Below, in pieces: positions 1-13,418 of a stretch of DNA of 13,418 nucleotides. The translations under genes and the position numbers were made by a program. The DNA lies in IMG/VR virus record IMGVR_UViG_2778261416_000004, positions 1 through 13,418 of that record, one strand, 5' to 3'. The stretch comes from a virus (taxonomy: Duplodnaviria > Heunggongvirae > Uroviricota > Caudoviricetes). The notes below the pieces were generated by a model. The model had not been told where the DNA came from. It saw only the letters and a program-made list of their open reading frames with translations, and searched no databases. The first letter of the stretch is position 1. Each line of letters begins with the position of its first letter.

Positions 1-558
1 ATGAATACAGCTATAACTTTTTCTAACGAGTCACCAAAAGTCTTTTTCAAAGATGGTCGCCTGGTTACCACCTCTCAAGCTGTTGCCGACTACTTCGATA
101 AACAACATAAACACGTTTTAGCTAAGATTGACACACTCGACTGCTCTCCCGAATTTACATCAGCCAACTTTTCGGCCGATGTTCAGACTGTCGAAATTGG
201 CAACGGCGCAGAACGTGAATCACGATGCTACCTGATCACAAAAGACGGCTTCATGTTCCTCGTAATGGGATTTACTGGCAAAAAAGCAGCCAGACTAAAA
301 GAAGCTTACATTGAAAAATTTAACGCAATGGAAGAAGAACTCCACAAACGTCCTCCTGCAGCACAAAACTCCCCCGCCCCAAATAATGGATGCGCATTAC
401 TGATCCACTTCGATAAACACGGTCAGGTCGAGTTCACAGAAAAAGTCCCCGCCGATGCGATGGTATGCACGCTGGAACGGTTTAAATTTTATCTGGAGCA
501 ACATGGGTGGATCGTTGCCCGTAAAGAACAATTGGTGGAAAGGTTGATGCGGTTTTAA
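1..558 (+). CDS. rha: Rha-family phage regulatory protein (Phage_pRha-like)
   Basis: 185-aa ORF starting at window position 1. N-terminal 'LVTTSQAVADYFDKQHKHVL' and the 'DGFMFLVMGFTGKKAARLKEAYIEKFNAME' block match the Rha signature as I recall it. Stop TAA at 556-558, followed by a hairpin terminator. Confidence 0.7.
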   Translation: MNTAITFSNESPKVFFKDGRLVTTSQAVADYFDKQHKHVLAKIDTLDCSPEFTSANFSADVQTVEIGNGAERESRCYLITKDGFMFLVMGFTGKKAARLKEAYIEKFNAMEEELHKRPPAAQNSPAPNNGCALLIHFDKHGQVEFTEKVPADAMVCTLERFKFYLEQHGWIVARKEQLVERLMRF

Positions 559-567
559 TGAATGCAA

Positions 568-598
568 AACCCCGGATGATCACCGGGGTTAATTTTAT
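568..598 (+). terminator. Rho-independent terminator-like hairpin after rha
   Basis: Perfect 8-bp stem aaccccgg/ccggggtt with 7-nt loop (568-590), followed by aattttat. Confidence 0.55.
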
Positions 599-919
599 CG
601 AGCGTGATTGCCGCTAATCGCCATCGCTCTGATTGAGCGTAAATCATTCAGGTTATTCAGTTCTTCCTTCTGCTCTCGCTGACGTCAATAAATCCCATCA
701 TTGCGATCAACCTCATCCTTAACCATTGATGCGAGCAGTTCTTCCAGTTTCTGCGCTGACAGCTTTACCTGGTGATCTTCAGCATCTTCCCGGGCTATTG
801 TGGTTCGCGCAGTGGCTGATTTTGCTGACATCACCACAGGGGGCAGACGGACCATTGAACCATGGCCTCCGGAACAAATAAGGGCAAAAATAACAACCAC
901 TATCGAAAGCTCACAAACT

Positions 920-1137
920 AACCGCAGCACGTTCCTGCATACGACGTGTCTGCGGCATAATCCCAATGATTACTCCCTGACAGGATTTGCAGGCCACTCA
1001 ATATCAGGTGCAGTTGATGTATCAACACGATTCAACAATACCCGATATTTATTCCATGCCTCCAGCAACGATCTTTCTTCCTCCGTTGCGATTTCCAGAT
1101 CTACAGCATCCTGCAGTGGCGCAATATACTCACTGAA
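920..1137. repeat. Direct repeat copy 1 (~215 bp, tfa 3'-end derived), left flank of methyltransferase island
   Basis: About 88% identical by eye to 1970-2187 in the same orientation. Covers the 3' end of the short tfa-like ORF and a downstream hairpin (922-955). Confidence 0.8.
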
Positions 1138-1239
1138 TTCCTGGATGTAGAACTGTGTGGTGACGGTCTTCCAGCCATTCGGCTCCTGCTGTATCGAAGC
1201 ATACCAGGCTATTTCAATATCGCTATGCTGCGGCAGCAT
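970..1239 (-). CDS. Short tail fibre assembly (Tfa)-like protein; C-terminal Tfa domain with unrelated 38-aa N-terminus
   Basis: 89-aa ORF. C-terminal ~50 aa ('[45 protein letters not shown]') near-identical to the C-terminus of the full tfa at 2019-2603. ATG at 1239 is preceded by an AAGGGG SD-like motif. Confidence 0.55.
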
Positions 1240-1295
1240 TTAACCCCTTGTAATTCATCGCCATAATTGATTTAATTCACAAATAAAACTATAAC

Positions 1296-1964
1296 ATGGT
1301 GAAATCAATGAAAAAAAACACAGATGATGGGGCTAAAATTTACACACCACTTACCCTAAAGCTTTATGACTGGTGGGTTTTGGGAGTATCAAATCGGCTT
1401 GCATGGGGATGTCCTACAAAGGAACACCTTCTTCCACACTTTCTGGAACATGTAGGTAACAACCATCTGGATATTGGTGTTGGAACTGGGTTTTACCTTA
1501 CTCACGTACCTGAGAGTAGTCTGATATCTTTAATGGATTTGAACGAAGCTAGCCTGAACGCGGCATCTACAAGGGCTGGGGAATCAAAAATTAAACATAA
1601 AATTAGCCATGATGTTTTTGAACCTTATCCCGCGGCGTTACATGGTCAATTTGATTCCATTTCCATGTTTTACCTTCTTCACTGCCTGCCTGGAAATATA
1701 TCTACAAAAAGCTGTGTAATACGCAATGCGGCGCAGGCCTTAACTGACGATGGAACTCTATACGGAGCCACAATTCTTGGCGATGGAGTTGTGCACAATA
1801 GCTTCGGTCAAAAACTGATGCGCATTTACAATCAGAAAGGCATCTTTTCAAACACAAAAGATTCCGAAGAAGGCTTAACACATATACTCTCAGAGCATTT
1901 CGAGAATGTTAAAACCAAGGTTCAAGGTACTGTAGTAATGTTTTCCGCTTCAGGGAAAAAATAG
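1296..1964 (+). CDS. Class I SAM-dependent methyltransferase (moron; substrate unknown)
   Basis: 222-aa ORF with motif I 'HLDIGVGTGFY', an acidic post-I residue ('LMDLNE') and motif II-like 'FDSISMFYLLHCLP'. AT-rich relative to neighbours. ATG at 1308, with a GGTGA SD-like motif 6 nt upstream, may be the true start. Stop TAG at 1962-1964. Confidence 0.75.
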   Translation: MVKSMKKNTDDGAKIYTPLTLKLYDWWVLGVSNRLAWGCPTKEHLLPHFLEHVGNNHLDIGVGTGFYLTHVPESSLISLMDLNEASLNAASTRAGESKIKHKISHDVFEPYPAALHGQFDSISMFYLLHCLPGNISTKSCVIRNAAQALTDDGTLYGATILGDGVVHNSFGQKLMRIYNQKGIFSNTKDSEEGLTHILSEHFENVKTKVQGTVVMFSASGKK

Positions 1965-1969
1965 CATCC

Positions 1970-2187
1970 AACCGCAGCACGTTCTTGCTTAAGACGTGCT
2001 GCGGCATAATCCCAATGATTACTCCCTGACAGGGTTCGTAGGCCACTCAATATCAGGTGCAGTTGATGTATCAACACGGTTCAGCAACACCCGATACTTT
2101 TTCCAGGCTTCCAGCAATGAGGTTTCTTCCTCCGTTGCAATTTCCAGATCTGCAGCATCCTGAAGCGGCGCAATATGCTCACTGGCT
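1970..2187. repeat. Direct repeat copy 2 (~215 bp), right flank of methyltransferase island; covers 3' end of tfa
   Basis: Aligns with 920-1137 by eye. Contains a perfect 11-bp-stem hairpin (1972-2004). Confidence 0.8.
1972..2004. terminator. Hairpin between convergent methyltransferase and tfa genes (candidate bidirectional terminator)
   Basis: ccgcagcacgt / acgtgctgcgg, 11-bp perfect stem with 11-nt loop, in the 54-bp gap between convergent stops. No clean U-tract, so terminator function is uncertain. Confidence 0.4.
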
Positions 2188-2603
2188 ACCTGCATCAGGT
2201 TGTTTTTTGTTTCTTCCGCCTCCCGGATCCGGAACAGTTTTTCTGCTTCCGTATCCTTCACCCAGGCTGTGCCGTTCCACTTCTGAAACTCCCCTTCCGG
2301 CGATAACCAGGTAACATTTTCCGGTAACGGACCGAGTTCAGAAATAAATAACTCGTCCCCTGACGCTACGTCATAAACCGTTTTACCCCGATGGTCTTCA
2401 ACGAGATGCCACGATGCCTCATCACTGTTGAAAACAGCCACAAAGCCAGCAGGAATATCTGGTGGTGCAATATCGGTACTGTTTGCTGGCAGACCTGTAT
2501 GAGGCGGAATATATGCGTCACCTTCACCAATAAATTCATTAGTTCCGGCCAGCAGATTATAAATTTTTATGGTCCGTGGTTGTTCACTCATTCTGAATGC
2601 CAT
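2019..2603 (-). CDS. tfa: Tail fibre assembly protein Tfa (lambda Tfa-like)
   Basis: 194-aa ORF; '[39 protein letters not shown]...' matches lambda Tfa as I recall it. Start ATG overlaps the stf stop (TAATG at 2601-2605), a typical stf-tfa coupling. Confidence 0.9.
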
Positions 2604-3976
2604 TATGCAAGCCTCACAATATAGTTAAATGCGATGTTTTTGACGGTGTTTTCCGCGTTACCCGCAGCGTTAACGGTGATGGTGTGTCCATGTGAACCAA
2701 TCGCAACGGAGTGCGTATGCGCACCAATACCTACAGTATGTGCATGTGCGCCAGAACTTGCTGCAGTACCAGACAGCGAGTGGGTATGAGCACCTGCTGA
2801 CTGTGTCTGAATACGTTGATAATACGATCTATAGGAAGAAGTCTCCGGGCTTACTTGATACTGTGAATTCTGGACATAAGTGAACCCACCGCCATCATAA
2901 AATGCTAACGCAGAACCGCCGCCTCCTGGCCAACGAATACCATTACCATGAGTATGAACACCGGCAGACCCCGTAGAGCCACTCAGACTGTGCGTATGCG
3001 CCCCGGTGTTATTCGTGGATTTAGTGCCGTAATCAAACGACGATGTGGTTTTCGTCCCCAAATCCGTACTGGATGCGCTGGCGCTGTGGGTGTGCGATTT
3101 AATGCCGTCCTGTTCCTGAGACAATACGGCCCGGCCACTGGCGGGTTTGCCCTTGATTGTCCAGCCGCGCATATCTGGAATAACACCTGAAGGATAGGCA
3201 ATAGCCAGTTTCGGATATGCTGCCTTATCAAACGTCTGCCCCTGCATGATTGCATAACCTGCAGGTGGTGTATCTGATGGCCACGGCAGCGGAACACCTG
3301 GCGGAAACGCTTCAATATTTGCCGAGCCGTCAAATTTTACGCCGTTAATTGTCCTTGCAGTTTGCAATTTGGTTGCTGTGCTTGCATTACCCGATAAAGA
3401 TCCAGTGATACCACCACTCGCGTTTAATTTAGTTGCAATTGTAACATTGCCAGTATGGTTACTAATTATAAACGGCCTTAAGCTATTGTGCGTACCAAGA
3501 CTGTTACCCGAATCTGTCAACATAAAATATGTGTTTGATCCATCATTTCGGATAAAGAATCCATAGTTGCCATAGGCAATACGCAGACCATTTGCTGACC
3601 TTGAAATAACCTCACCAGCAGCAGTTAAACCACCTGAAAGAGTCCCTCCAGTTAATGCCAATGCCCCAATATTTGAAGGGGTCAATGTGATATTTGCACT
3701 ACCATCAAATGACACACCGTTAATCGTTCTGGCTGCCTGAAGTTTCGTGGCGGTCGCAGCATTACCTGTAGTGTTTTGATTACCGGTAGCGTTGACTCCA
3801 GGCAAGTTGATATCTGCCGATCCATCAAATGCCACGCCCCCAATCTTACGTGCTGTCTTGATCTTGGTCGCAGTATCTGCGTTTCCGGTCAAATTACCAG
3901 TAACACTACCACCAACTTTTAGTCCATTACCGATGGACACCAACTCATGCAGGCGTCTCAGACGACCCACTGACAC
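2603..3976 (-). CDS. stf: Side tail fibre protein Stf, C-terminal portion (5'-truncated; GTG start, no SD)
   Basis: 457-aa ORF with repeated 'GNA(S/D)TATKLQ(T/A)ARTINGV(K/S)FDGSANI' fibre repeats and a His-rich 'GAHTHS' C-terminal region ending '[11 protein letters not shown]', like lambda Stf. The frame stays open upstream to 4066 with no ATG; first start-like codon is GTG at 3976. Confidence 0.8.
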
Positions 3977-4020
3977 TACCGGTGAGTTTAACGATACCTT
4001 CCATTTGACTGGCTCACTTT

Positions 4021-5874
4021 TTATGATGATGCCGGTGCATTTATCTCCAGCACCAGACTTTCTATCTCAACGCCATACGTTGCATTTTTGGTAATATCCG
4101 TCAGCGTCAGTGCATTTAGTCCCACTGTCAGACTGTCTTTTATGACCTGGAATGCCGGGCCAGCCACTCCATTCAGTTTCGGAGTAACCGTGGCACTGCC
4201 GGCGGTGAACACCAGCTCCAGCGTCTGCCAGTCGTTACTGTAATTCCCGAACTCGCCCAACTTTGTGTTTCCGGCTTTCTTGTGATGCATCAGATTCAGT
4301 TTGCCGTCTGTGGTCTGGGTGAAGAACGACATCAGGAACGGGTTACCAGTCCCGGTCATCGCCACGACGTCAGGTAACGCTACATCGGTATACAGATAAA
4401 TTCCCAGACCGAACTGGTTGTTGGTCAGTGCGCCTGACAGTCGAAACTTACAGCTCAGTCTGCCACCCCGTGTCAGCAGGGAGACTGCGTCATCCACCGG
4501 GCGCGTCAGGGACCAGGCTTTATTGCTCTGCTTGGTGATCTTAAATACACCATCTGACAACTGAATTCCGCCATTCTTAATGCTCCAGCCCTGCGCAGCA
4601 GCATCTCCGGCTGTCGGCAACAGGGAGATTGTGCGTACGGATGCATCTTCAGACGGCCCCGATGGCGTGTCGCCGCCGGGCGAGGGTTTGATTTCCGGTG
4701 CCTTACCACTAATGAAGGCTAAGGTGCGACCGGCTACGTTCAGAATAGCAGTTGCCATACGATCGGGAATAATGCCACGACGCGCCCATGAGCTGAAATG
4801 CGTCGGGCGATTTGATGATACCCAGTTTTTGTTCGTTCGGGATGCCGAACCGTAATAACCAGACCCGGCAATATCAGGATCTTCTGACGGGTTGTTTGTC
4901 GGTGTATTAACTCCGCTACCATCGGTCATAAAGGGAACAAAATAAATCTGCTGGGATTCTTTACCTTTATATGCACCATATACCACTTCATATTGCGTAC
5001 CGTGTTCTTGTTTCCACGCGTATGTCGTGTCGCCACAAATCCAGGGGACTGATGCCGGACTTCCACCGTGACACTGCGCTGCCAGCCCGGCAAGGTCAGC
5101 ACGGAACTGCTGTACCATTGCAAGAAATGCTGCTGGCTGCTGGGCGTAACTGGCATTCGTCATATCGAATTCCCCCTGCATCCAGCATATCGCCAGCAAA
5201 ACGTTTTTCGGGTTTTTCTGCAATGCTGCCTTCGTGCGGAAAAGCAGATCCTGATATAACGGCTTACCCACTCCCCAGCGAGCCGAATCCTGACTGGCTC
5301 CCGTGGACTCGCTGAATGTCCCCTCCGTGCCCTGGGTGAATGCCGAACCACCACGACAGCATGGTACCAGCAGGATCCCCGCATTATTAGGGATATACGG
5401 AAGCAGTTTTTTGGCAATATGTAAGCCCTGTCCGACACAGCCGTACTGCCCTTTGCTCAGGTCAGCCCGGGGATGGTTAATCGTACTCATATCCTGAACA
5501 TCATGCAGACAATGGTCAGCAGGAATGATGTCGTTAAATACGCATACTTCACCACCGGGAGTCACTGTGTTACGACGGGCCAGTTGCTTAATGCGCGGAT
5601 GGGGCGCATCGTATGAATCCGGAAGCGGAAGCCCTTCACCGTAAGCCATGGCATTGGATTGCCCGGCCAGTACGATGACGTAGTACCACTCCGGCTCAGT
5701 TGCACCACTGACGACCACATCACCTTCTGCTGCAATCGCCTGCATCAGGGTATAAGGGGTTATGGCCACCGGACTACCAAACGGCTGCCAGCCCTCCTTC
5801 AGTTTTTGTGTCAGTCGTTTCGCAAGGTCTGACGGCGATGCCGCCCTGACCACGTCATAGTGTTTAAATGCCAT
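4021..5874 (-). CDS. Prophage sialate O-acetylesterase (NanS-p-like; DUF1737 + SGNH/SASA esterase + C-terminal domain)
   Basis: 617-aa ORF. '[16 protein letters not shown]' is the SGNH block I motif (GQSN). N-terminus '[21 protein letters not shown]' is the DUF1737-type start seen in EHEC prophage NanS-p esterases. GGAGG SD 4 nt before the ATG. Confidence 0.8.
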
Positions 5875-6067
5875 GAATCCTCCCGGGCGGGATAATGTTG
5901 TGAGTCAGATAAGGAGCAGGCTGAAGTCCGGAAGTTACAGGACAATGGCAGAAGGGAGACTACAGCCCGCAATTCGAAAAAGACCGCGCAGTTGCGCAGA
6001 GTGATTACTATGGGGTATTATTCGCCAGCTGAAATATTACTTCACGTTTTATTGTTTATTCCTTGCC

Positions 6068-6096
6068 GCCCGCGTCTCCCAGCGCGGGCTTTTTTT
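6068..6096 (+). terminator. Strong Rho-independent terminator on the plus strand (orphan)
   Basis: 7-bp GC stem gcccgcg/cgcgggc with 8-nt loop, followed by a T7 run (6090-6096). No plus-strand gene lies upstream. Confidence 0.6.
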
Positions 6097-6104
6097 GTCC
6101 ATAA

Positions 6105-6340
6105 GAAAGCCCCTCCGGAGAGGGGCTAAAGCCGCGTATCTGTATCATCATGCACATGGTGCCGGGTGCCTCCCGGTGAGTTCAGCCCGGTGCCACTAAA
6201 CCCGCGTCATTCTCGTTTTGATAATCAGAGATTATACCGTCACCAGTCGCCCCTCCGCTCAGGGGGATTCACCATGCGAAATTTTTTTAACAAATGCCCA
6301 GTCTGACAGGCAACTGTCAACTTACTGAATTGTGAGCAAC
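6105..6340. repeat. Non-coding direct repeat module A (~235 bp)
   Basis: Shares with module B a perfect 20-nt palindrome agcccctccggagaggggct (6108-6127), 'gcatggtgccgggtgcctcccggtga', 'gcccctccgc.cagggggattcaccatgc' and 'ctgaattgtgag' blocks. Also carries TTGACA and TATAAT hexamers on the minus strand and a CTGACAG-N4-CTGTCAA inverted repeat. Confidence 0.7.
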
Positions 6341-6591
6341 ATAGCATTTAACGGGGAACCTGTTTTCTGCAGTAAAAAGGCCCACCGGAGCGGATGGGCC
6401 TGGAAGGATAGCGGTCATGTGATGCCGGTTTCCCGGTAACTCAGCACCGGTATCTGAGTCAACGTTTTCTCTACTGGGTCATTTCCGATACGCCCTGCCT
6501 GCTGACAGGCTTTCATCACATCTGAAAATATAGCACCCTGACTGATACTGTAGTACCTAAGGTTCCAGAAACTGTGATGTATCCGGCACAG

Positions 6592-6808
6592 AAAAGCCCC
6601 TCCGGAGAGGGGCTGGAGAGTGGCGCTATGTGCCATTGCATGGTGCCGGGTGCCTCCCGGTGAATTCAGTACCAGCACCTGAATCCGCGATTATCCCATA
6701 TACCTACTCGCTGATTGCCCCTCCGCACAGGGGGATTCACCATGCCAGTTTCTTTTAACAAACTCCCCGCAAACCAGACAACAGTCAACCGCCTGAATTG
6801 TGAGACAT
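6592..6808. repeat. Non-coding direct repeat module B (~217 bp)
   Basis: Second copy of module A (roughly 75-80% identity by eye). The palindromic hairpin at 6595-6614 is followed on the minus strand by TTTTCTG. Confidence 0.7.
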
Positions 6809-6810
6809 TT

Positions 6811-6834
6811 AAAAAAAAGCCCGCAAAAGCGAGC
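6811..6834 (-). terminator. Rho-independent terminator of the tRNA operon (minus strand)
   Basis: On the minus strand: GCUCGC-UUUU-GCGGGC hairpin (one G.U pair) followed by U8, immediately 3' of the last tRNA. Confidence 0.6.
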
Positions 6835-6849
6835 CAGGGAAAATAAGTG

Positions 6850-6926
6850 TGGCGCGTTGTACTGGATTCGAACCAGTGACCGATTGCTTAGAAGGCAATT
6901 GCTCTGTCCGGCTGAGCTAACAACGC
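6850..6926 (-). tRNA. argO: tRNA-Arg (anticodon UCU)
   Basis: Manual fold of the reverse complement: acceptor GCGTTGT/ACAACGC, D-arm GCTC...GAGC, anticodon loop CTTCTAA, T-arm ACTGG-TTCGAAT-CCAGT, discriminator G, CCA; 77 nt. Confidence 0.85.
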
Positions 6927-6939
6927 AGGATACAGATAA

Positions 6940-7016
6940 TGGACCGCCTTCGGGGACCCGAACTCCGCGCAACCAGCTTCGAAGGCTGGCGCTCTTTCCT
7001 GATGAGCTAATGGCGG
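6940..7016 (-). tRNA. argN: tRNA-Arg-like (anticodon UCG), possibly degenerate
   Basis: Cloverleaf with anticodon loop CTTCGAA and 3' CCA, but an A.A mismatch in the acceptor stem, an A.C mismatch in the T-stem and an atypical T-loop TTCGGGT. Confidence 0.55.
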
Positions 7017-7023
7017 TATGTGA

Positions 7024-7099
7024 TGGTGGCCCTTGCTGGATTTGAACCAGCGACCTGGCGATTATGAGTCGCTCGCTCTCACCACTGAGCTAAAGGGCC
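7024..7099 (-). tRNA. ileZ: tRNA-Ile2/Met (anticodon CAU; ileX-like, likely lysidine-modified Ile)
   Basis: Reverse complement GGCCCTTTAGCTCAGTGGTGAGAGC...CTCATAA...GCTGGTTCAAATCCAGCAAGGGCCACCA gives a canonical 76-nt cloverleaf, closely resembling E. coli ileX as I recall it. Confidence 0.85.
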
Positions 7100-7108
7100 G
7101 GGAGCAGA

Positions 7109-7137
7109 ATAATAATGGTGCGTAATTAATTCTGCAA
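7109..7137 (-). promoter_or_regulatory. Candidate sigma70 promoter of the tRNA operon
   Basis: Minus strand: TTGCAG (-35, 7137-7132), 17-bp spacer, TATTAT (-10, 7114-7109), about 9 nt before the tRNA-Ile 5' end. Confidence 0.45.
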
Positions 7138-7148
7138 TCTCATCCGTT

Positions 7149-7577
7149 TCAAACGATTAAATCCTGAACTTCCCTGACTGTCTGCTCAAAACGTCCGGTC
7201 TCCAGTTCAACGCCAATCGCACGACGCCCGAGCGCCAGTGCCGCTTTTACCGTTGAACCTGAGCCCATAAAAAAATCTGCAACCAGGTCACCCGGACGAC
7301 TGCTTGCGCTGATTATCTGCTGCAGCATTTCTGCCGGTTTTTCGCACGGATGTTTCCCGGGATAGAACTGCACCGGTTTATGTGTCCACACATCCGTGTA
7401 CGGCACCTGCGCCGTCACACCAAAATACCGCCGCAGATGCTTATATTCACTCTGCAGCTCCACATACTGCCGGTTCAGTGACGTATACGTATCCACCAGC
7501 TGGTGGTGGGGCTTTTCCAGTTCACCGCGCTGATGTTTCTCTTCTGCTACCAGAACAGGTCGAAGTAATACCCGCAC
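7149..7577 (-). CDS. DNA (N6-adenine/N4-cytosine) methyltransferase, C-terminal portion (truncated or frameshifted)
   Basis: 142-aa ORF with 'GKHPCEKPAEMLQQIISASSRPGDLVADFFMGSGSTVKAALALGRRAIGVE', i.e. the HPxxKP and FxGSGST (SAM-binding) motifs of beta-class MTases such as YhdJ. No DPPY motif in this ORF; GTG start abuts the stop of the upstream ORF in another frame. Confidence 0.7.
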   Translation of the reverse strand: MRVLLRPVLVAEEKHQRGELEKPHHQLVDTYTSLNRQYVELQSEYKHLRRYFGVTAQVPYTDVWTHKPVQFYPGKHPCEKPAEMLQQIISASSRPGDLVADFFMGSGSTVKAALALGRRAIGVELETGRFEQTVREVQDLIV

Positions 7578-7578
7578 G

Positions 7579-7851
7579 TTACCTCCAGATGCGTTGCTGG
7601 AATGTGCGGGACGGACGCGGTGGGCGTTCAGAGTAAGGAAGCCTGACGGAGATTATCCAGTGACGATAATCGAGGCTGAGGGCTTTCTTAATCTCGTATC
7701 CGCGTCTGCGGTAGTTATGAATTAGCCATTCGGCCTGTTCTTCAGTACATGGTGGGTGTTGGTACCAGTCGGTTTTAAATGCGTGTGAACGCCGCCCATG
7801 CCGGATGGCAAGGTCGGTATCAGAATTGTGAAATTTGGTTTTGTGCGCCAT
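7579..7851 (-). CDS. Hypothetical protein; possibly the displaced N-terminal part of the DNA methyltransferase
   Basis: 90-aa ORF ending 1 nt before the MTase fragment start. Contains 'DWYQHPPC' where a DPPY-type motif would be expected, but this is not a convincing match. Confidence 0.4.
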   Translation of the reverse strand: MAHKTKFHNSDTDLAIRHGRRSHAFKTDWYQHPPCTEEQAEWLIHNYRRRGYEIKKALSLDYRHWIISVRLPYSERPPRPSRTFQQRIWR

Positions 7852-7922
7852 CTGTTTTCTCTGCTGGCGCAGCAGGTGTCAGGTGTTCAGGCTGACGTGC
7901 GAATTGTAAACCAGAATGCCAG

Positions 7923-7950
7923 AAAAAAACAAAACCCGCCGAACCGGGTT
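7923..7950 (-). terminator. Rho-independent terminator downstream of hok (minus strand)
   Basis: Minus strand: AACCCG-GUUCGG-CGGGUU hairpin followed by UUGUUUUUUU, about 70 nt 3' of the hok stop. Confidence 0.55.
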
Positions 7951-8018
7951 AAGTGCGGGTGCGTTGAGGATGCCTGACACATCAGAGGTGGCGAGGGATT
8001 TCTCCCCCGCCAGGTCTC

Positions 8019-8174
8019 TTACTCCTCAGGTTCGTAAGCTGTGAAGACAGCGACCTCCGTCTGGCCGGTTCGGAGTCGTACCTCGCAGAGGTCTTTCCTC
8101 GTTACCAGTGCCGTCACTATGACGGTTAAACAGATGACGATCAGGGCGATTAACATCGCCTTTTGCTGCTTCAT
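8019..8174 (-). CDS. hok: Hok/Gef-family type I toxin (HokD/RelF-like small membrane protein)
   Basis: 51-aa product 'MKQQKAMLIALIVICLTVIVTALVTRKDLCEVRLRTGQTEVAVFTAYEPEE' aligns with plasmid R1 Hok ([38 protein letters not shown]). ATG at 8174 has an AAGGGGAAG SD; an in-frame upstream extension to 8231 (70-aa ORF in the track) could be a mok-like leader ORF. Confidence 0.85.
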   Translation of the reverse strand: MKQQKAMLIALIVICLTVIVTALVTRKDLCEVRLRTGQTEVAVFTAYEPEE

Positions 8175-8411
8175 AGCCTGCTTCCCCTTGCCTTTCGGCA
8201 CGTAAGAGGCTAACCTACATTTGTGAGACATAGATTGGGCCTCAGATTAATGTTAAGCGTCTTGCAGGACGCGAAATGTTAACTGGGGCTTTTCTCTATC
8301 TGCCTTTCAGTGTTCATGCCTGAGACAGATAGCCTCAAGCACCCGCAGCCATTCTACTTAACTCACGTCACCTCGCCAATATGAAATCAATCAGAAAGGT
8401 GATCCATAAAA

Positions 8412-9098
8412 TCACTCCTTCTCTTCTTTTCCGTAGTGGAGTTGGCCAATTTTGATAAGAGGGCGTCCCTGAGATTTGCGGTGTAGATTGGTATCGCGCA
8501 GAGAATACACACAGCCACAATATTCCTGCTGATAGAATTTTTCGCGCTTGCTGATTTCAATCATACGGGACGAGCCGCCCTGCTTGCGCCAGTTATAATC
8601 CCAGTACACCATACCCGGATAATGCGCAACAGCTCGCCGCCCACACTCGTTAACCTGCTGCATATTTTTCCAGCGTGAAATGCCCAGTGAACTGCTGATC
8701 ACACTGAAACCATTTTCAGCAGCGTACAACGCTGTCCGCTCAAAACGCATGTCAAAACACATGGTACAACGGATCCCCCTCTCAGGCTCCCATTCCATTC
8801 CTTTGGCACGTTCAAACCAGTTGTCGGTGTCGTAATCAGCATCGATAAACGGCACGCCGTGTTGTTCAGCAAAGCGAATATTTTCATCCTTACGAATTAA
8901 ATACTCTTTCTGAGGATGAATGTTCGGGTTGTAGAAAAAGATGGTGTAGTCGATTCCCGAGGCCTGAAGCGCCTCCATCACTTCACCGGAACATGGAGCA
9001 CAGCAAGAGTGCAGTAGTAGTTTGTTTGCCCCGTTTGGGAGCTCCAATTTAGGCCGTTTGAAATCAGCAATAGTCATAAATATTTTTATTGGGGTCAT
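8412..9098 (-). CDS. queH: QueH-like protein (DUF208; putative epoxyqueuosine reductase)
   Basis: 228-aa ORF with motifs '[11 protein letters not shown]', '[13 protein letters not shown]', 'CTMCF' and 'CGC', which I recognise as the DUF208/QueH Fe-S signature. 153-bp intergenic region upstream; weak SD. Confidence 0.7.
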
Positions 9099-9251
9099 GA
9101 AAATAGCACAGAGTGTAGCATCAGAGCAGGGCTATCGGGAATATATGTCTAAATCTGGTAATATCTGGTTTTGACGCAAAGCGGACAACCACGCTGGCTC
9201 TACCCTGCGCCATGAAAATGTCAATTCACATCTGAACTAATGCTCTTTAAT

Positions 9252-9677
9252 CTAGTAACGTCTAAAATACCTAACATTTCCTTGATAAAATGCCAGTACA
9301 CGCTGCATAGCTTCGCTCTTCCGGCACTCGCGACAGATTATATTCAGGCGCCTGTCGTAGCGGCGTATTTCGCCGTCTGGTAACGACCAGATAAGGTCCG
9401 GATCAACCACTGCAGGTTTCTTCACCTTTGCCCTTGAGAGTTTTTTGCGAGCATTTTGCCAGTCCTTACGCGCCTGTTCAGACGGGAATAACCCGTAACC
9501 AGAGTTGTATACATCGCCACTGGCAACCAGCTCTCTGGCCAGAACGCTCATCAGATATCTTGTTGCCCCAGTTTTAGTTTCCAGTTGTCGTAACGTCTCG
9601 CGCCCACTCTGGCGTACGAGTTCAACAACCTGCCCTTTAATTTTCTCCCGCTCTTCTTGTGTAAAAACTTTTGCCAC
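9252..9677 (-). CDS. Hypothetical phage protein (141 aa; possible winged-HTH region)
   Basis: GTG start at 9677 preceded by AGGAGGG SD 4 nt upstream. 'TLRQLETKTGATRYLMSVLAREL' is HTH-like. Not recognised as Q, P or NinB. Confidence 0.6.
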   Translation of the reverse strand: MAKVFTQEEREKIKGQVVELVRQSGRETLRQLETKTGATRYLMSVLARELVASGDVYNSGYGLFPSEQARKDWQNARKKLSRAKVKKPAVVDPDLIWSLPDGEIRRYDRRLNIICRECRKSEAMQRVLAFYQGNVRYFRRY

Positions 9678-9717
9678 AAGCCCTCCTGAAAATTACCTCA
9701 TGACCAGAAATTAACAC

Positions 9718-10695
9718 TTACCCCCTGAAGCCCGGCGGAATTTCAGTGTCCGGTTCAGAAATGTGATTCACGCAACGCTGCGCAGGCGAACGCCCCAGGC
9801 GGATAACCAGTTCATCCCATTTTTCCCGGAGTTTTGCCGGACTCATGATGTTTTTTACCCAGAACGAATCCCGCTGGAGACGCCCAAACATTTCACAAAT
9901 TTGTCTGTGAGTTCTGCCATCCAGCATCCGCATTGTGCGAACGTCATTGGCCCATGCTGTCCAGTTGGGTTCTTTCGGTCTAGTGATCTCGCCATCATCG
10001 CTGGCCGCCTGCTCGTAAAGACTCACGATTCGTCCCCAGATCCACTGTGCGCACACCAAATCTTCCTGACTTCCCCACTGGCGTTTTTTCGCACTGAACA
10101 CAACCGCGTCAGGGTGTCGGGTTAAAAAATCCTGTTCAGCCGTCTGCGGGTCCGGTTGCGAAGCGTCCGGACAAGAAGATCTTTTATCTGACGGATCAGG
10201 TTTTAATACTGACGGATCGGGGTCAATCATCGCCCCCCTAATCGGCAGTTTTTTATCAACAGTTGATCCATCAAAATTTGACGGGTCAACCGTTGAGGGG
10301 TCAATATTTGACGGGTCAACTGTTAACGGGTCATTTTTTGCCGGGCTAATTTTTCTTTTCGGTTTATATGACTCACGCGCCGCCGCCGCAGCTGCTTCGA
10401 GTTTTTCCACATTAAGCCGATAGATATTGCTTACATTACGCCCACCGACCTTACGCTCTTCCTTCGTCAGCCAGCCCTCTTTCGCCAGTTCTGCAATAGC
10501 CGATTTCACTGTGGATTCACTTCTTGCACCGATCTGACGCCGGATAGTTTCAATGGCAGGCCATGACACGCCCTCGTCATTGCTGTAGTCTGCAAGACGG
10601 GCCATAACCGCCACCCTGGATAAGATCATGCCGGTGAAGGCGCACCCTTCCCAGACAAGACCATGAAGCTTGCTGCTCATAAAACCCCCGAACAC
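9718..10695 (-). CDS. Phage replication initiator (O-like; N-terminal winged helix, internal iteron-encoded repeats)
   Basis: 325-aa ORF; N-terminus 'AFTGMILSRVAVMARLADYSNDEGVSWPAIETIRRQIGARSESTVKSAIAELAKEGWL' is a typical replication-initiator wHTH. Internal 'DPSNIDPSTVDPSNFDGSTVD' repeats are encoded by DNA iterons. Likely true start is ATG at 10680 (GGGGGT SD); the track start is GTG at 10695. Confidence 0.8.
   Translation of the reverse strand: MFGGFMSSKLHGLVWEGCAFTGMILSRVAVMARLADYSNDEGVSWPAIETIRRQIGARSESTVKSAIAELAKEGWLTKEERKVGGRNVSNIYRLNVEKLEAAAAAARESYKPKRKISPAKNDPLTVDPSNIDPSTVDPSNFDGSTVDKKLPIRGAMIDPDPSVLKPDPSDKRSSCPDASQPDPQTAEQDFLTRHPDAVVFSAKKRQWGSQEDLVCAQWIWGRIVSLYEQAASDDGEITRPKEPNWTAWANDVRTMRMLDGRTHRQICEMFGRLQRDSFWVKNIMSPAKLREKWDELVIRLGRSPAQRCVNHISEPDTEIPPGFRG
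10185..10370. repeat. Candidate phage origin of replication: iterons plus adjacent A/T-rich stretch inside the initiator gene
   Basis: Four 15-bp-periodic units TTGACGGGTCAAC / TTGAGGGGTCAAT / TTGACGGGTCAAC / TTAACGGGTCATT at 10278, 10293, 10308 and 10323, plus degenerate copies at 10188-10228, followed by the A/T-rich 10336-10370. Confidence 0.6.
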
Positions 10696-10702
10696 CGTGC
10701 TT

Positions 10703-11020
10703 TTAGTGCATCACCACAGCATTCCCTGCCGGGCCGCCGCGATTCATCTGGTCATACAAAACAACCGCTGACGCAACAAAATCATCGACATCCTTCACCA
10801 GCCGATCCCTCCGTTCGACGATCTCACGATAATATTCAGAACTGTGGCTGCGCATACGGGCCACCAGCAAAGGCGGCATCGCCTTTTCGATCGCCGGTAA
10901 CAGAGCCTGCATTTTTTCAACAGCATCAGGGGTGTCTTTCTCTACCCAGCGGAAAATTTTCTGGGTATTGCGAGCCAGGGCTTCCGGATGGCTGTCGTCA
11001 TACAGTTCTGGGAACGTCAT
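10703..11020 (-). CDS. Hypothetical protein (about 105 aa) upstream of the replication initiator
   Basis: Plausible amino-acid composition, whereas the overlapping plus frame is a low-complexity P/S/H-rich read-through. ATG at 11020 (track start is TTG at 11026); weak SD. Function unknown. Confidence 0.5.
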   Translation of the reverse strand: MTFPELYDDSHPEALARNTQKIFRWVEKDTPDAVEKMQALLPAIEKAMPPLLVARMRSHSSEYYREIVERRDRLVKDVDDFVASAVVLYDQMNRGGPAGNAVVMH

Positions 11021-11064
11021 ACCCAACTCAAAATAAGCCTGGGTTAAGGGGAAATGAGGTCAGC

Positions 11065-11220
11065 ATGGATACTATCGATCTTGGCAACAGCGAATCTCTG
11101 GTATGTGGCGTGTTCCCCAACCAGGACGGTACGTTCACCGCGATGACGTATAACAAAAGCAAAACGTTTAAAACCGAAAATGGTGCCCGTCGCTGGCTGG
11201 AAAGAAACTCAGGTGAGTGA
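11065..11220 (+). CDS. ydfA: YdfA-like small protein (51 aa), first gene of dicB-type operon
   Basis: ATG at 11065 with GAGG SD. 'MDTIDLGNSESLVCGVFPNQDGTFTAMTYNKSKTFKTENGARRWLERNSGE'. The sizes and order 51-42-72-DicF-62-62 match the Qin dicB operon. It is the C-terminal end of the track's spurious 185-aa ORF. Confidence 0.7.
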   Translation: MDTIDLGNSESLVCGVFPNQDGTFTAMTYNKSKTFKTENGARRWLERNSGE

Positions 11221-11221
11221 T

Positions 11222-11350
11222 ATGGATTTCGACACAATCATGGAAAAGGCTTACGAAGAATACTTCGAAGGTCTTGCCGAAGGCGAAGAAGCTCTCAGCT
11301 TCAACGAATTTAAACAGGCGCTTTCCAGTTCGGCAAAATCTAACGGCTGA
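11222..11350 (+). CDS. ydfB: YdfB-like small protein (42 aa)
   Basis: ATG at 11222, 1 nt after the ydfA stop, with AGGTGAG SD. 'MDFDTIMEKAYEEYFEGLAEGEEALSFNEFKQALSSSAKSNG'. Absent from the ORF track because it is under 60 aa. Confidence 0.65.
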   Translation: MDFDTIMEKAYEEYFEGLAEGEEALSFNEFKQALSSSAKSNG

Positions 11351-11379
11351 TAAGCGAAACAGCACCGCGAGGAATCAGT

Positions 11380-11598
11380 ATGCAGAAACGAGAACCCGTC
11401 ATCATCGCGCCAGACTATACCGATGATGAACTTTATGAGTGGATGCACCAGAAAATTAATGCAGCGCAGGATCTGAAATGGGCCAATGAAGCCAGGGCTA
11501 AGCAGGCTGAAAATCTGTCCGCTCTGGAGCAGGATATCACTAATCTGGAAAAAGCAGCGGCATTAAGCATTGCCAGAATGATTACATACCCGCGTTAA
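11380..11598 (+). CDS. ydfC: YdfC-like small protein (72 aa)
   Basis: ATG with GAGGA SD; position and size match ydfC of the dicB operon. Confidence 0.7.
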   Translation: MQKREPVIIAPDYTDDELYEWMHQKINAAQDLKWANEARAKQAENLSALEQDITNLEKAAALSIARMITYPR

Positions 11599-11939
11599 TA
11601 GCTAACCAACGAAGCTAAGGTTGGTAATTAAGGAGTTCTCCACGGGTCAGGTGGAGTGCGTGCGCCGGACACGGGTGAGCATCCGGCACTGACAGCTTAC
11701 TGAAAGGATATGTCCCTGAAAAGTCAGGGCATAACGCGAAAGCGCACGGCGAAATTGGTCTCTCTGTACGGTGTCGTTAAATTTAGTTCGACCGTGCGCT
11801 TCCGGTTGTGGCACTCCGCGAAATGGCGCGGCGGTAAGTATGGCTGGGGTTTCCTCCATTGCTCCAGAAAATGCACCGGGTTGTCAGGTTGACCATACGC
11901 TTAAGTGACAACCCCGCTACAACGCCCTCTGTTATCAAT

Positions 11940-11997
11940 TTTCTGGTGACATTTGGCGGTATCAGTTTTACTCCGTGACTGCTCTGCCGCCCTTTTT
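11940..11997 (+). ncRNA. dicF: DicF small regulatory RNA (ftsZ-targeting sRNA of the dicB operon)
   Basis: 'tttctggtgacatttggcggtatcagttttactccgtgactgctctgccgcccttttt' matches the DicF sequence as I recall it, including the terminator stem GGCGG...CCGCC plus U-run. Confidence 0.75.
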
Positions 11998-12175
11998 AAA
12001 GTGAATTTTGTGATGCGGTGAATGCGGCTATGCGCACGCGGAACAGTTAAAGCAGTAAGGCGGTATTTTACGGGCGTAACGAGCATCAACTAACCCGGCG
12101 TTAATTGTTAACTGGTTAACGTCACCTGGAGGCACCAGGCACTGCATCACAAAATTCATTGTTGAGGACGCGATA

Positions 12176-12364
12176 ATGGAAACGTTATTACCAAACGTTA
12201 ATACGTCTGAAGGTTGTTTTGATATTGGTGTTCTGCTCAGTAACCGGGAGTTTACTGAAGATGCCATTAATATGAGGAAATATGAGCCTTATCTGCTCAA
12301 TGATAATTCCATACTTTCCCGAATTGCTCTTCTTGAACTTGGTATTTTCGGAGAACGTCAATGA
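12176..12364 (+). CDS. dicB: Cell division inhibitor DicB homolog (62 aa)
   Basis: 'METLLPNVNTSEGCFDIGVLLSNREFTEDAINMRK...' matches the DicB N-terminal half as I recall it. GAGGA SD. The C-terminal half looks divergent. Confidence 0.8.
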   Translation: METLLPNVNTSEGCFDIGVLLSNREFTEDAINMRKYEPYLLNDNSILSRIALLELGIFGERQ

Positions 12365-12549
12365 CTTCAGCATTTGCACTGATGATGACGGTTTTTCTTA
12401 TAACGGGTGAATCACAGAATGTGATTACCGGAATTTATGCAAGTAAAGAATCCTGCCTCCAGGCAAGAGACGAGCAAAAAATTTCTGGTGAATGCCTCCC
12501 GCTAAAAAAAGTATCGCTGTACCTGAATAACGAAACACCGGCTGGATAA
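12361..12549 (+). CDS. ydfD: YdfD-like small protein with N-terminal hydrophobic segment (62 aa)
   Basis: ATGA start/stop overlap with dicB and GGAGA SD. 'MTSAFALMMTVFLITG' is a TM/signal-like segment followed by a hydrophilic tail with two Cys. Confidence 0.7.
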   Translation: MTSAFALMMTVFLITGESQNVITGIYASKESCLQARDEQKISGECLPLKKVSLYLNNETPAG

Positions 12550-12644
12550 CCCTCCAGCCATATTAACACCATACCAACGGATTAAAAATGCCAGCAATGG
12601 CAGGGATTCGTTCACCCTGAAATCTGTAATGAGGTTAAAACAAA

Positions 12645-13418
12645 ATGAGTAAGGTCTTTATTTGCGCTGCTATTCCTGATGAACAGGCCATAAAAGAAGA
12701 TAGCGCTGTTGCGGTGGCCACTGCCATTGAAGCCGGTGATGAGCGTCGCGCACGCGCAAAATTTCATTGGCAATTTCTGGAGCAATTCCCTGCAGCTCAG
12801 GACTGCGCTTATAAATTTCTTGTTTGCGAGGATAAACCCGGTATACCCCGCCCTGCCCTCGATTCCTGGGATGCTGAATATATGCAGGAAAACCGCTGGG
12901 ATGAGGAGTCTGCTTCCTTTGTCCCGGTTGAGACTGAATCAGATCCGATGAACGTCACTTTTGACAAGCTGGCCCCTGAAGTACAGAACGCTGTCATGGT
13001 TAAGTTCGACACATGTGAAAACATCACCGTTGATATGGTTATTAGCGCACAGGAATTGTTGCAGGAAGACATGGCAACATTCGACGGACATATCGTTGAA
13101 GCGTTGATGAAAATGCCAGAAGTTAACGCCATGTACGCTCTCTGGCCTGGTGATGTGGATGCCGGAAACATTGACGGCAGCATCCATCGCTGGGCAAAAA
13201 ATGAAGTTATCGACAACGACCGCGAAGACTGGAAGCGTATCTCGGCATCAATGCGCAAACAGCCTGATGCCCTTCGCTACGACCGCCAGACTATTTTTGG
13301 CCTTGTCCGTGAGCGTCCGATCGACATTCACAAAGATCCCATAGCACTGAACAAATATATCTGCGAATACCTGACGACAAAGGGCGTGTTTGAGAATGAA
13401 GAAACAGACCTGGGCACT
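12645..13418 (+). CDS. ydfE: YdfE-like protein, 3'-partial (runs off the window end; at least 258 aa)
   Basis: Translated by hand from ATG 12645 (GAGG SD 9 nt upstream): 'MSKVFICAAIPDEQAIKEDSAVAVATAIEAGDERRARAKFHWQFLEQFPAAQD...'. Open to position 13418 with no stop; not in the ORF track because it has no stop in the window. Confidence 0.7.
   Translation, partial: MSKVFICAAIPDEQAIKEDSAVAVATAIEAGDERRARAKFHWQFLEQFPAAQDCAYKFLVCEDKPGIPRPALDSWDAEYMQENRWDEESASFVPVETESDPMNVTFDKLAPEVQNAVMVKFDTCENITVDMVISAQELLQEDMATFDGHIVEALMKMPEVNAMYALWPGDVDAGNIDGSIHRWAKNEVIDNDREDWKRISASMRKQPDALRYDRQTIFGLVRERPIDIHKDPIALNKYICEYLTTKGVFENEETDLGT

Follow-up and report, generated by a model that had tools for sequence, protein, structure and literature searches.

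The question raised by this locus is what stands at the site of the Shiga toxin (Stx) genes when a related prophage carries no toxin, and how such a site is connected with that of the Stx-converting phages. The stretch analysed, hereafter the window, is the 13,418-nucleotide viral DNA of IMG/VR record IMGVR_UViG_2778261416_000004 (positions 1 to 13,418). In it, a first-pass annotation had noticed a tRNA cluster followed by a NanS-p-type esterase gene and by no toxin gene, and had compared this arrangement with the late region of Stx phages. Our comparisons indicate that the region is very probably the moron slot in the late operon of a lambdoid prophage of the Qin/Sp4 type, that is, the stxAB locus of Stx phages, here without protein cargo. 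Positions are window coordinates throughout, and gene orders on the minus strand are given in its 5′ to 3′ reading.

On the minus strand, the region consists of a methylase gene remnant, ileZ-argN-argO, an intrinsic terminator, an empty cargo junction, three tandem STnc100-family units (the middle one diverged) and the esterase gene (Table 1). An EcOnc08-type small RNA (sRNA) lies on the opposite (plus) strand between the STnc100 units and nanS-p, so that a convergent sRNA pair, STnc100 on the minus and the EcOnc08 type on the plus strand, is situated between the cargo point and the downstream open reading frame (ORF). The interval from argO to the esterase gene spans 975 bp (5875-6849).

Table 1. 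Features of the slot and of the deletion junctions around it, in minus-strand order
Feature	Position	Strand	Basis or remarks
Remnant fusion ORF, 142 amino acids (aa)	7149-7577	-	First 10 DUF968 codons in frame with the C-terminal ~132 aa of the methyltransferase
Promoter-like TTGCAG-17-TATTAT just 5′ of the tRNA cluster	7109-7137	-	Predicted from sequence only
tRNA-Ile2, anticodon CAT (ileZ-type)	7024-7099	-	ARAGORN; Rfam tRNA, 72.5 bits
tRNA-Arg, anticodon TCG (argN-type)	6940-7016	-	ARAGORN; Rfam, 43.4 bits
tRNA-Arg, anticodon TCT (argO-type)	6850-6926	-	ARAGORN; Rfam, 70.1 bits
Intrinsic terminator 3′ of argO, GGCTCGCTTTTGCGGGC + T8	6811-6835	-	Terminator scan, boundary comparison
Protein-cargo (moron) insertion point A, empty	6810-6815	-	Homology breakpoints of L001, L010 and L011; base-level boundaries
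STnc100-family sRNA gene, copy 1 (EcOnc05 allele)	6584-6815	-	Rfam, 136.3 bits at 6584-6774
Copy 1, TTAAATG (-10-like)	6812-6806	-
Copy 1, CTCACAATTCAG start block	6804-6793	-
Copy 1, terminator	6614-6593	-
Third, diverged STnc100-like unit (spacer, or middle unit)	6372-6545	-	Rfam STnc100, 30.1 bits, E 2.4e-4, full-length, sub-gathering
Middle unit, extended -10-like TGCTATATT	6535-6527	-
Middle unit, closing helix	6521-6514 / 6424-6417	-
Middle unit, terminator	6400-6374	-
STnc100-family sRNA gene, copy 2 (Stx-phage-like allele)	6097-6351	-	Rfam, 165.4 bits at 6097-6306
Copy 2, TTAAATG	6351-6345	-
Copy 2, CTCACAATTCAG	6336-6325	-
Copy 2, terminator	6127-6106	-
Convergent sRNA region, EcOnc21/EcOnc08 type	5931-6096	+	EcOnc08 match, terminator scan
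Convergent sRNA, promoter-like TTGCGC-18-TATTAT	5992-6021	+
Convergent sRNA, terminator + T run	6068-6089	+
NanS-p-type sialate 9-O-acetylesterase gene, 617 aa	4021-5874	-	Pfam DUF1737 + SASA + DUF6645
Second deletion junction	3942-3944		~78 bp past the esterase stop, straight into the tail-fibre gene; base-level reading
5′-truncated tail-fibre ORF over the second junction, 457 aa	2603-3976	-	Gp34_trimer, Collar, Phage_fiber

Region 4021-7600 matched 390 phage records, among which Stx1- and Stx2-converting phages predominated. In the Stx2a phage Stx2_95 (L001), the annotated order is methylase, tRNA-Met(CAT), tRNA-Arg, tRNA-Arg, stx2A, stx2B and the yjhS esterase. Alignment revealed that window 7551..6812, which comprises the 3′ end of the methylase gene together with tRNAs and terminator, corresponds to Stx2_95 3001-3741 with 92% identity and stops 54 bp before stx2A, and that window 6335..4741, containing sRNA and esterase sequence, corresponds to Stx2_95 5081-6730 with 74% identity in a local alignment. 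Because the tRNA side and then the sRNA/esterase block both align, the resemblance to Stx phages is not due to chance, an explanation that we rejected on these block alignments and the 390 phage matches. The likeness to Stx-phage late regions proposed earlier was thus borne out, the sequences on both sides of the interval being homologous rather than unrelated.

In the Stx2a phage, stx2AB is placed exactly between the argO terminator and the sRNA unit that precedes the esterase gene. Comparison at the base level showed that the slot variants part right after the T-run of the argO terminator (6811) and rejoin at TTAAAT..CTCACAATTCAG (6812-6793), where the STnc100 unit starts; the terminator was the last block common to the Stx2a, the tciAB-carrying and the other variants. 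At the point equivalent to 6810-6815, relatives carry stx2AB, stx1AB, tciA/tciB or a DUF3927 gene. When Stx1A/B and Stx2A/B were compared with the window by tblastn, no match was obtained in the 975 bp (the best, of 16 residues with an E value of 0.44, lay elsewhere), in agreement with the earlier statement that the interval of about 1 kb holds no A- or B-subunit ORF, and no stx remnant was found at any level in the window. Nothing replaces stx here: the cargo junction is empty and the sRNA module is expanded by duplication. It was also noticed that the stx2 cassette (L001 3742-3760; ATATCTGCGCC) and the tciAB cassette (L011 2885-2900; GTATCCGCGCC) have a similar leader of ~12 nt after the argO terminator T-run, which hints at a possible common cassette boundary.

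ARAGORN located the anticodons CAT, TCG and TCT in this order on the minus strand, as the Ile(CAU)-Arg-Arg order had been read before. The tRNA with anticodon CAT was labelled Met by ARAGORN, and is annotated as tRNA-Ile or ileZ in RefSeq and in strain Sakai (Sakai ileZ1). With such anticodons, tRNAs decode AUA, AGA/AGG and CGA/CGG-type codons. Identity to the copies in Stx2a phages was 76/76 for ileZ, 69/77 for argN and 77/77 for argO. The argN-type tRNA, which differs from the Stx2a copy at 8 of 77 positions, has non-standard pairs in the acceptor and T arms; the same weak allele is present in prophages close to Sakai Sp4 (42.9 bits in F7386), and judging from the sequence this tRNA-Arg(TCG) may be decaying or evolving fast. 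The promoter candidate in front of the cluster was not reported by the consensus scan because its -35 element fits at 3 of 6 positions only.

The esterase gene downstream of the tRNAs was correctly recognised as NanS-p-type in the first-pass annotation. Its product matched the solved NanS structure 3PT5 over residues 59-379 (E 4.5e-122) and the C-terminal domain of NanS-p, 6YP6 (from the phi24B protein), over residues 421-613 (E 8.9e-31), and therefore has the N-terminal DUF1737, the SASA catalytic domain and the C-terminal lectin-like domain by which the NanS-p prophage esterases are defined. The 3′ 1.76 kb of the gene showed 95.7% DNA identity to Stx2 phage 86. As in those prophages, it is situated downstream of the stx position, although their usual late promoter is deleted in the window. 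Activity on Neu5,9Ac2 has been published for the NanS-p alleles of EDL933 and O104:H4, and nanS-p genes have been documented in non-Stx prophages. By family membership and this published enzymology, the enzyme is predicted to remove 9-O-acetyl groups from sialic acids.

The interval had been described as filled only by non-coding repeats. The repeats are real, but they consist of STnc100-family sRNA genes together with a convergent sRNA; the only ORF annotated there is a spurious pseudo-ORF of the PGAP pipeline, antisense within STnc100 copy 1. Copies 1 and 2 both exceed the gathering score of the Rfam STnc100 family (RF02076, 47 bits) and are full length (model positions 1-206), with ~70% identity to each other. 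Copy 1 was 94% identical to the single STnc100 of the stx-negative phage JLK-2012, and window 6713-6605 within it is identical to the EcOnc05 peak obtained by crosslinking and analysis of cDNA (CRAC) with Hfq in Sakai Sp4. From window 6335, the 5′ end of copy 2, alignments extended into the esterase gene with 83% identity to Stx1 phage YYZ-2008, 78% to Stx2 phage 86 and 74% to Stx2a_95. One STnc100 directly 5′ of the esterase gene was found in every reference phage compared (Stx2a_95, Stx2-86, Stx1 YYZ-2008 and stx-negative JLK-2012); in the Stx1 and Stx2 phages it sits just downstream of stxB, a constant component of the slot, and is followed directly by AsxR or AgvB in antisense in Stx2-86 and the Stx1 phages. 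The northern probe for EcOnc27 maps within the STnc100 of Stx2-86.

Much of this arrangement is known from Tree et al. 2014 (PMC4104026), who described that the region 3′ of the Q-antiterminated promoter PR′ tolerates morons and carries convergent sRNA genes, with prophage Sp5, in which EcOnc02/AsxR and EcOnc27 lie 3′ of stx2B, as an example and a similar organisation in lambdoid prophages Sp3, 4, 9, 10, 11, 15 and 17, among them the stx1-bearing Sp15. Their Table S2 lists EcOnc27 with ~235/247 nt (the 247-nt form being Hfq-dependent), EcOnc05 in Sp4 with ~222 nt and EcOnc08/21 in Sp4, on the opposite strand, with ~271 nt; Hfq binding and transcript sizes were thus shown in O157 Sakai for alleles identical or near-identical to those of the window. 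In a 2026 preprint, Zhu, Shabalina and Storz report PasD, which is structurally related to STnc100, immediately upstream of a sialate esterase gene, the position also taken by copies 1 and 2. PasD of phages 2B8 and 434 scored 38-41 bits against the Rfam STnc100 model. In the publications consulted, no description of tandem multi-copy STnc100 arrays was found.

For the convergent plus-strand sRNA, window 6022-6094 differed from the EcOnc08 Hfq peak by 2 mismatches, and Stx2a_95 has the same allele (L001 5320-5440), near-identical over the shared stretch. AgvB and AsxR likewise lie convergently between STnc100 and the esterase gene, and the window sRNA shares with them the upstream GGCCGCGCAGTTGCGCAG block bearing the -35-like TTGCGC. 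However, AgvB, AsxR and EcOnc03 have a conserved 3′ region of ~42 nt, whereas the body of the window sRNA is of the EcOnc08 type. Since neither AgvB (RF02702) nor AsxR (RF02703) gave an Rfam match at E <= 1 in 5750-7150, we rejected the assignment of this RNA to either of them.

Careful examination of the ~250 bp between copies 1 and 2 revealed the middle unit, which at 30.1 bits is below the gathering score and was therefore not filed as a member of STnc100. A second allele, with 85.5% identity and 30.0 bits, occurs in nine relative loci that combine the multi-copy module with iraM; no allele beyond these two, for use in covariation analysis, was found among E. coli genomes and phages. The minimum free energy (MFE) folds of both alleles match the STnc100 topology (z = -2.66 and -2.21), in which an 8-bp closing helix around the hairpins is followed by a single-stranded linker and a terminator. 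The closing helix is AUGUGAUG/CAUCACAU in the middle unit versus GCAUGGUG/CACCAUGC in STnc100, with 4 pairs altered on both sides; the third hairpin is ACUCAG/CUGAGU versus AUUCAG/CUGAAU, and the fourth hairpin of the middle unit is CCGG-GAAA-CCGG. In or beside the first hairpin the two alleles show 7 differences, 5 of them at helix positions, and pairing as read by eye is kept in 5/5. A core of ~100 nt and TGCTATATT are near-invariant between the alleles, and the sequence upstream of TGCTATATT is variable. Because MAFFT alignment of the STnc100-like units left some helices one column out of register and misplaced the PasD closing helix, pairing was taken from the independent MFE folds and by eye, without pair counts.

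The fold topology and the compensatory pairs suggest that the middle unit may be a distant relative of STnc100, and probably a genuine, diverged sRNA gene. In a collection of 5426 complete E. coli genomes it was present in 673, never annotated, and it was also found in 5 phage records; E. coli ATCC 11775 (= DSM 30083) is one carrier, with 100% identity. Identity with PasD was rejected: in comparisons with the proxy loci of phages 2B8 (NC_049952) and 434, copies 1 and 2 gave short motif-level matches and the middle unit none. In one relative (IMG/VR locus L017), the middle unit is split by an insertion of ~1.26 kb (2703-3966), which may be an insertion sequence (IS) element.

The nearest published counterpart is Sp4, a non-Stx lambda-like prophage of the O157:H7 strain Sakai. 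It has the same tRNA trio, terminator and empty junction, 98.5% identity over window 7116..6593 with the same STnc100 allele, the same convergent sRNA and an esterase of the same family (ECs_1088), so that the synteny of the tRNA-to-esterase interval extends to stx-negative prophages, as had been proposed for comparison. However, in Sp4 ileZ1-argN1-argO1 is followed by ECs_1088 after 489 bp with one STnc100, whereas the window has 975 bp and three units, and the upstream neighbour is a gene for an AraC/helix-turn-helix regulator in Sp4 and the methylase remnant in the window. O157 strain F7386, with the slot as in Sp4, retains the Q gene upstream. Stx2a phages of the 933W/Sp5 type (e.g., Stx2_95) share with the window the methylase, tRNA trio and terminator at 92% and, on the right side, an STnc100 (EcOnc27-type), the convergent sRNA and nanS-p; they differ in having stx2AB (~1.3 kb) at the junction that is empty here, a single STnc100, and intact Q/PR′ and lysis genes.

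The slot variants thus differ in three places: 1) F7386 and Sp4 have nothing at the junction, where the blocks abut, one STnc100 and a convergent RNA in antisense, 2) FCI17 (L011) has tciA/tciB, the window's multi-copy module (91.7%, contiguous) and an AsxR-like antisense RNA, 3) WP4-W18 (L010) has the DUF3927 gene, one STnc100 and iraM at the antisense position, and 4) Stx phages have stxAB, one STnc100 and AsxR, AgvB or an EcOnc08-type RNA. Among 80 relatives from IMG/VR, all with an esterase identity of 86% or more, the content after the tRNAs was DUF3927 > STnc100 > iraM in 23, of the window type in 12, a minimal slot in 11, STnc100 > iraM in 10, the multi-copy module with iraM in 9 and tciA-containing in 4 (one without the tRNA block in the locus); loci outside these classes were incomplete or singletons, and no stx carrier was found among the 80. 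In the complete E. coli genomes, the slot contents include iraM, TerB/tciA, DUF3927 and TolA-like genes, and 319 genomes covered 80% or more of the stretch from the tRNAs to the esterase gene of the window.

The prophage around the slot is heavily reduced. The window matched contig NOSF01000005.1 of assembly GCA_002521955.1 with 100% identity; there the remnant adjoins genes of the DUF892 domain (PF05974) and KGG types and trpA, whereas the intact prophage of relatives adjoins ompW. Two deletions were read at the base level. In the first (junction at ~7542-7551), window 7700..7542 corresponds to 14893-15051 and window 7551..3942 to 18492-22101 of a relative locus (L003), so that ~3.4 kb with DUF968, RusA, antiterminator Q, the PR′ region and the 5′ part of the methylase gene is gone; the resulting fusion ORF covers positions 111-219 of 221 of the Pfam profile N6_N4_Mtase only. 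An exact-protein look-up found the 142-aa fusion protein in four assemblies, GCA_002521955.1 and three metagenome/SRA assemblies. The second deletion removed the holin, endolysin, spanin, terminase, head and most tail genes, and in APEC E12049 its two sides are separated by ~27 kb. Both junctions together occur in none of the 5426 genomes, and the junctions were not found in GTDB species representatives or in the relative loci compared. Q and PR′ upstream of the slot and holin, endolysin and spanin downstream of it, present in intact relatives such as BR1220, are thus missing. With these regulatory, lysis and morphogenesis genes deleted, any remaining expression would have to come from local promoters instead of Q-antiterminated late transcription. 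A DicF sRNA is encoded in the early region (11941-11992, plus strand; Rfam, 77 bits), where dicB is annotated in BR1220, and on this basis the element was assigned to the Qin/Sp4-like lambdoid prophages.

How the slot came to be empty can be considered in terms of a proposed exchange. The conserved tRNA block and the conserved sRNA/esterase block would act as recombination anchors on either side, and the cassettes (stx1, stx2, tciAB, the DUF3927 gene, iraM at the antisense position, or nothing) would be exchanged among lambdoid phages. Under such an exchange, the toxin-free slot might be the ancestral vacant site that later received stx, as the first-pass annotation had considered. The junction is clean, since the T-run of the argO terminator passes directly into TTAAATG/CTCACAATTCAG, where the sRNA unit starts; empty or minimal slots occur frequently, and several unrelated cassettes stand at one point in different phages, as repeated acquisition predicts. 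However, tciAB-type cassettes end in ...AAATTTTTAAATAC, and a deletion between the T-run there and that of the terminator would give the same empty junction, so that gain and loss of stx are not distinguished by it. Flanks with 92% (tRNA side) and 74% (sRNA/esterase side) identity to Stx2a phages do not indicate a near ancestor, an element that has lost Q/PR′, lysis and structural genes cannot be a transmissible progenitor, and the toxin-free state is widespread, including in Sp4, with the slot alternating among many cargoes. We therefore consider it unlikely that the window represents the progenitor state. The opposite course, a former Shiga toxin phage from which stxAB was recently deleted, appears far less probable still. 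The complete identity of ileZ and argO with the Stx2a phage copies, the convergent sRNA allele in common with Stx2a_95 and the loss of stx from prophages in E. coli strains that make Shiga toxin proposed in the preprint of Zhu et al. are compatible with it, but a stx remnant is missing, none of the 80 loci nearest by esterase carries stx, the same empty junction is conserved in Sp4 and occurs in many other non-Stx prophages, and the sRNA copy at the junction is the EcOnc05/JLK-2012 allele and not that of Stx phages. We regard the element as a toxin-free relative that shares the slot architecture with Stx phages, neither a demonstrable progenitor nor a recent ex-Stx phage; of the two states suggested for it at the outset, the stx-free relative was retained and the progenitor found no support.

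Another reading takes the repeats as non-functional duplication debris of unequal inter-prophage recombination, in decaying DNA without RNA products of consequence. The multi-copy and single-copy slots indeed differ by the segment between two identical 22-nt terminators (those of copies 1 and 2), as recombination predicts, and annotation by PGAP yielded only the pseudo-ORF. Nevertheless, we think debris highly improbable, since copies 1 and 2 match a structured RNA family over its full length and with high scores, a sequence identical to part of copy 1 was bound by Hfq and seen on northern blots in Sakai, the middle unit keeps all helices by compensatory changes around its near-invariant core, and the module is retained in hundreds of genomes. 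By analogy with the Sakai alleles, the slot sRNAs would bind Hfq and act as regulators in trans, the folded scaffold being conserved and the single-stranded linker variable. A further step, to which we give somewhat less than an even chance, is that the middle unit is expressed from a promoter of its own, has its own seed and terminator, and represents a third, hitherto unrecognised member of the STnc100/PasD scaffold family; in ~12% of E. coli genomes, the stx-equivalent slot would then be a tandem array of scaffold-conserved, seed-variable Hfq sRNAs, an RNA cargo in place of protein morons that diversifies by inter-prophage recombination.

Several points weigh against the reading of the region as a moron slot with functional RNA contents. 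With Q/PR′ gone, the esterase gene and the tRNAs may be silent. The candidate promoters are weak consensus matches, none of which was reported by the promoter scan (three plus-strand sites were listed). Cassette exchange is something that we infer from shared breakpoints only, and the sRNA status of the middle unit has behind it a score below gathering, two known alleles and few compensatory changes.

The slot architecture itself has already been published, both the tRNA trio and the nanS-p gene of non-Stx prophages and the convergent Hfq-binding sRNAs of the moron site. The only item that is modestly new is the unannotated third STnc100-like unit, from which the slot can be seen as an array of sRNAs in tandem, conserved in scaffold and variable in linker. 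As the stx locus is the archetype of the phage moron site, knowledge of its toxin-free contents helps to account for the movement of toxin genes from phage to phage and for the other contributions of such prophages to the host. To this the window adds a precisely mapped empty junction, an eroded prophage that retains the tRNA, sRNA and esterase block, and a third sRNA-like unit common in E. coli.

Outside the slot, a gene for the tRNA-modifying epoxyqueuosine reductase QueH (8412-9098, minus strand) was located beside a hokD/sok type I toxin-antitoxin locus (8169-8344, minus strand), in which sok matched Rfam with 120 bits. On the other side, an Rfam IS009 match of 225 bits (2062-2260, minus strand) lies within a tail-fibre assembly gene. 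Two copies of the tail-fibre assembly gene are marked by a 216-bp direct repeat with ~90% identity (920-1135 and 1970-2184), and they flank a gene for a class I S-adenosylmethionine (SAM)-dependent methyltransferase (1296-1964, plus strand).

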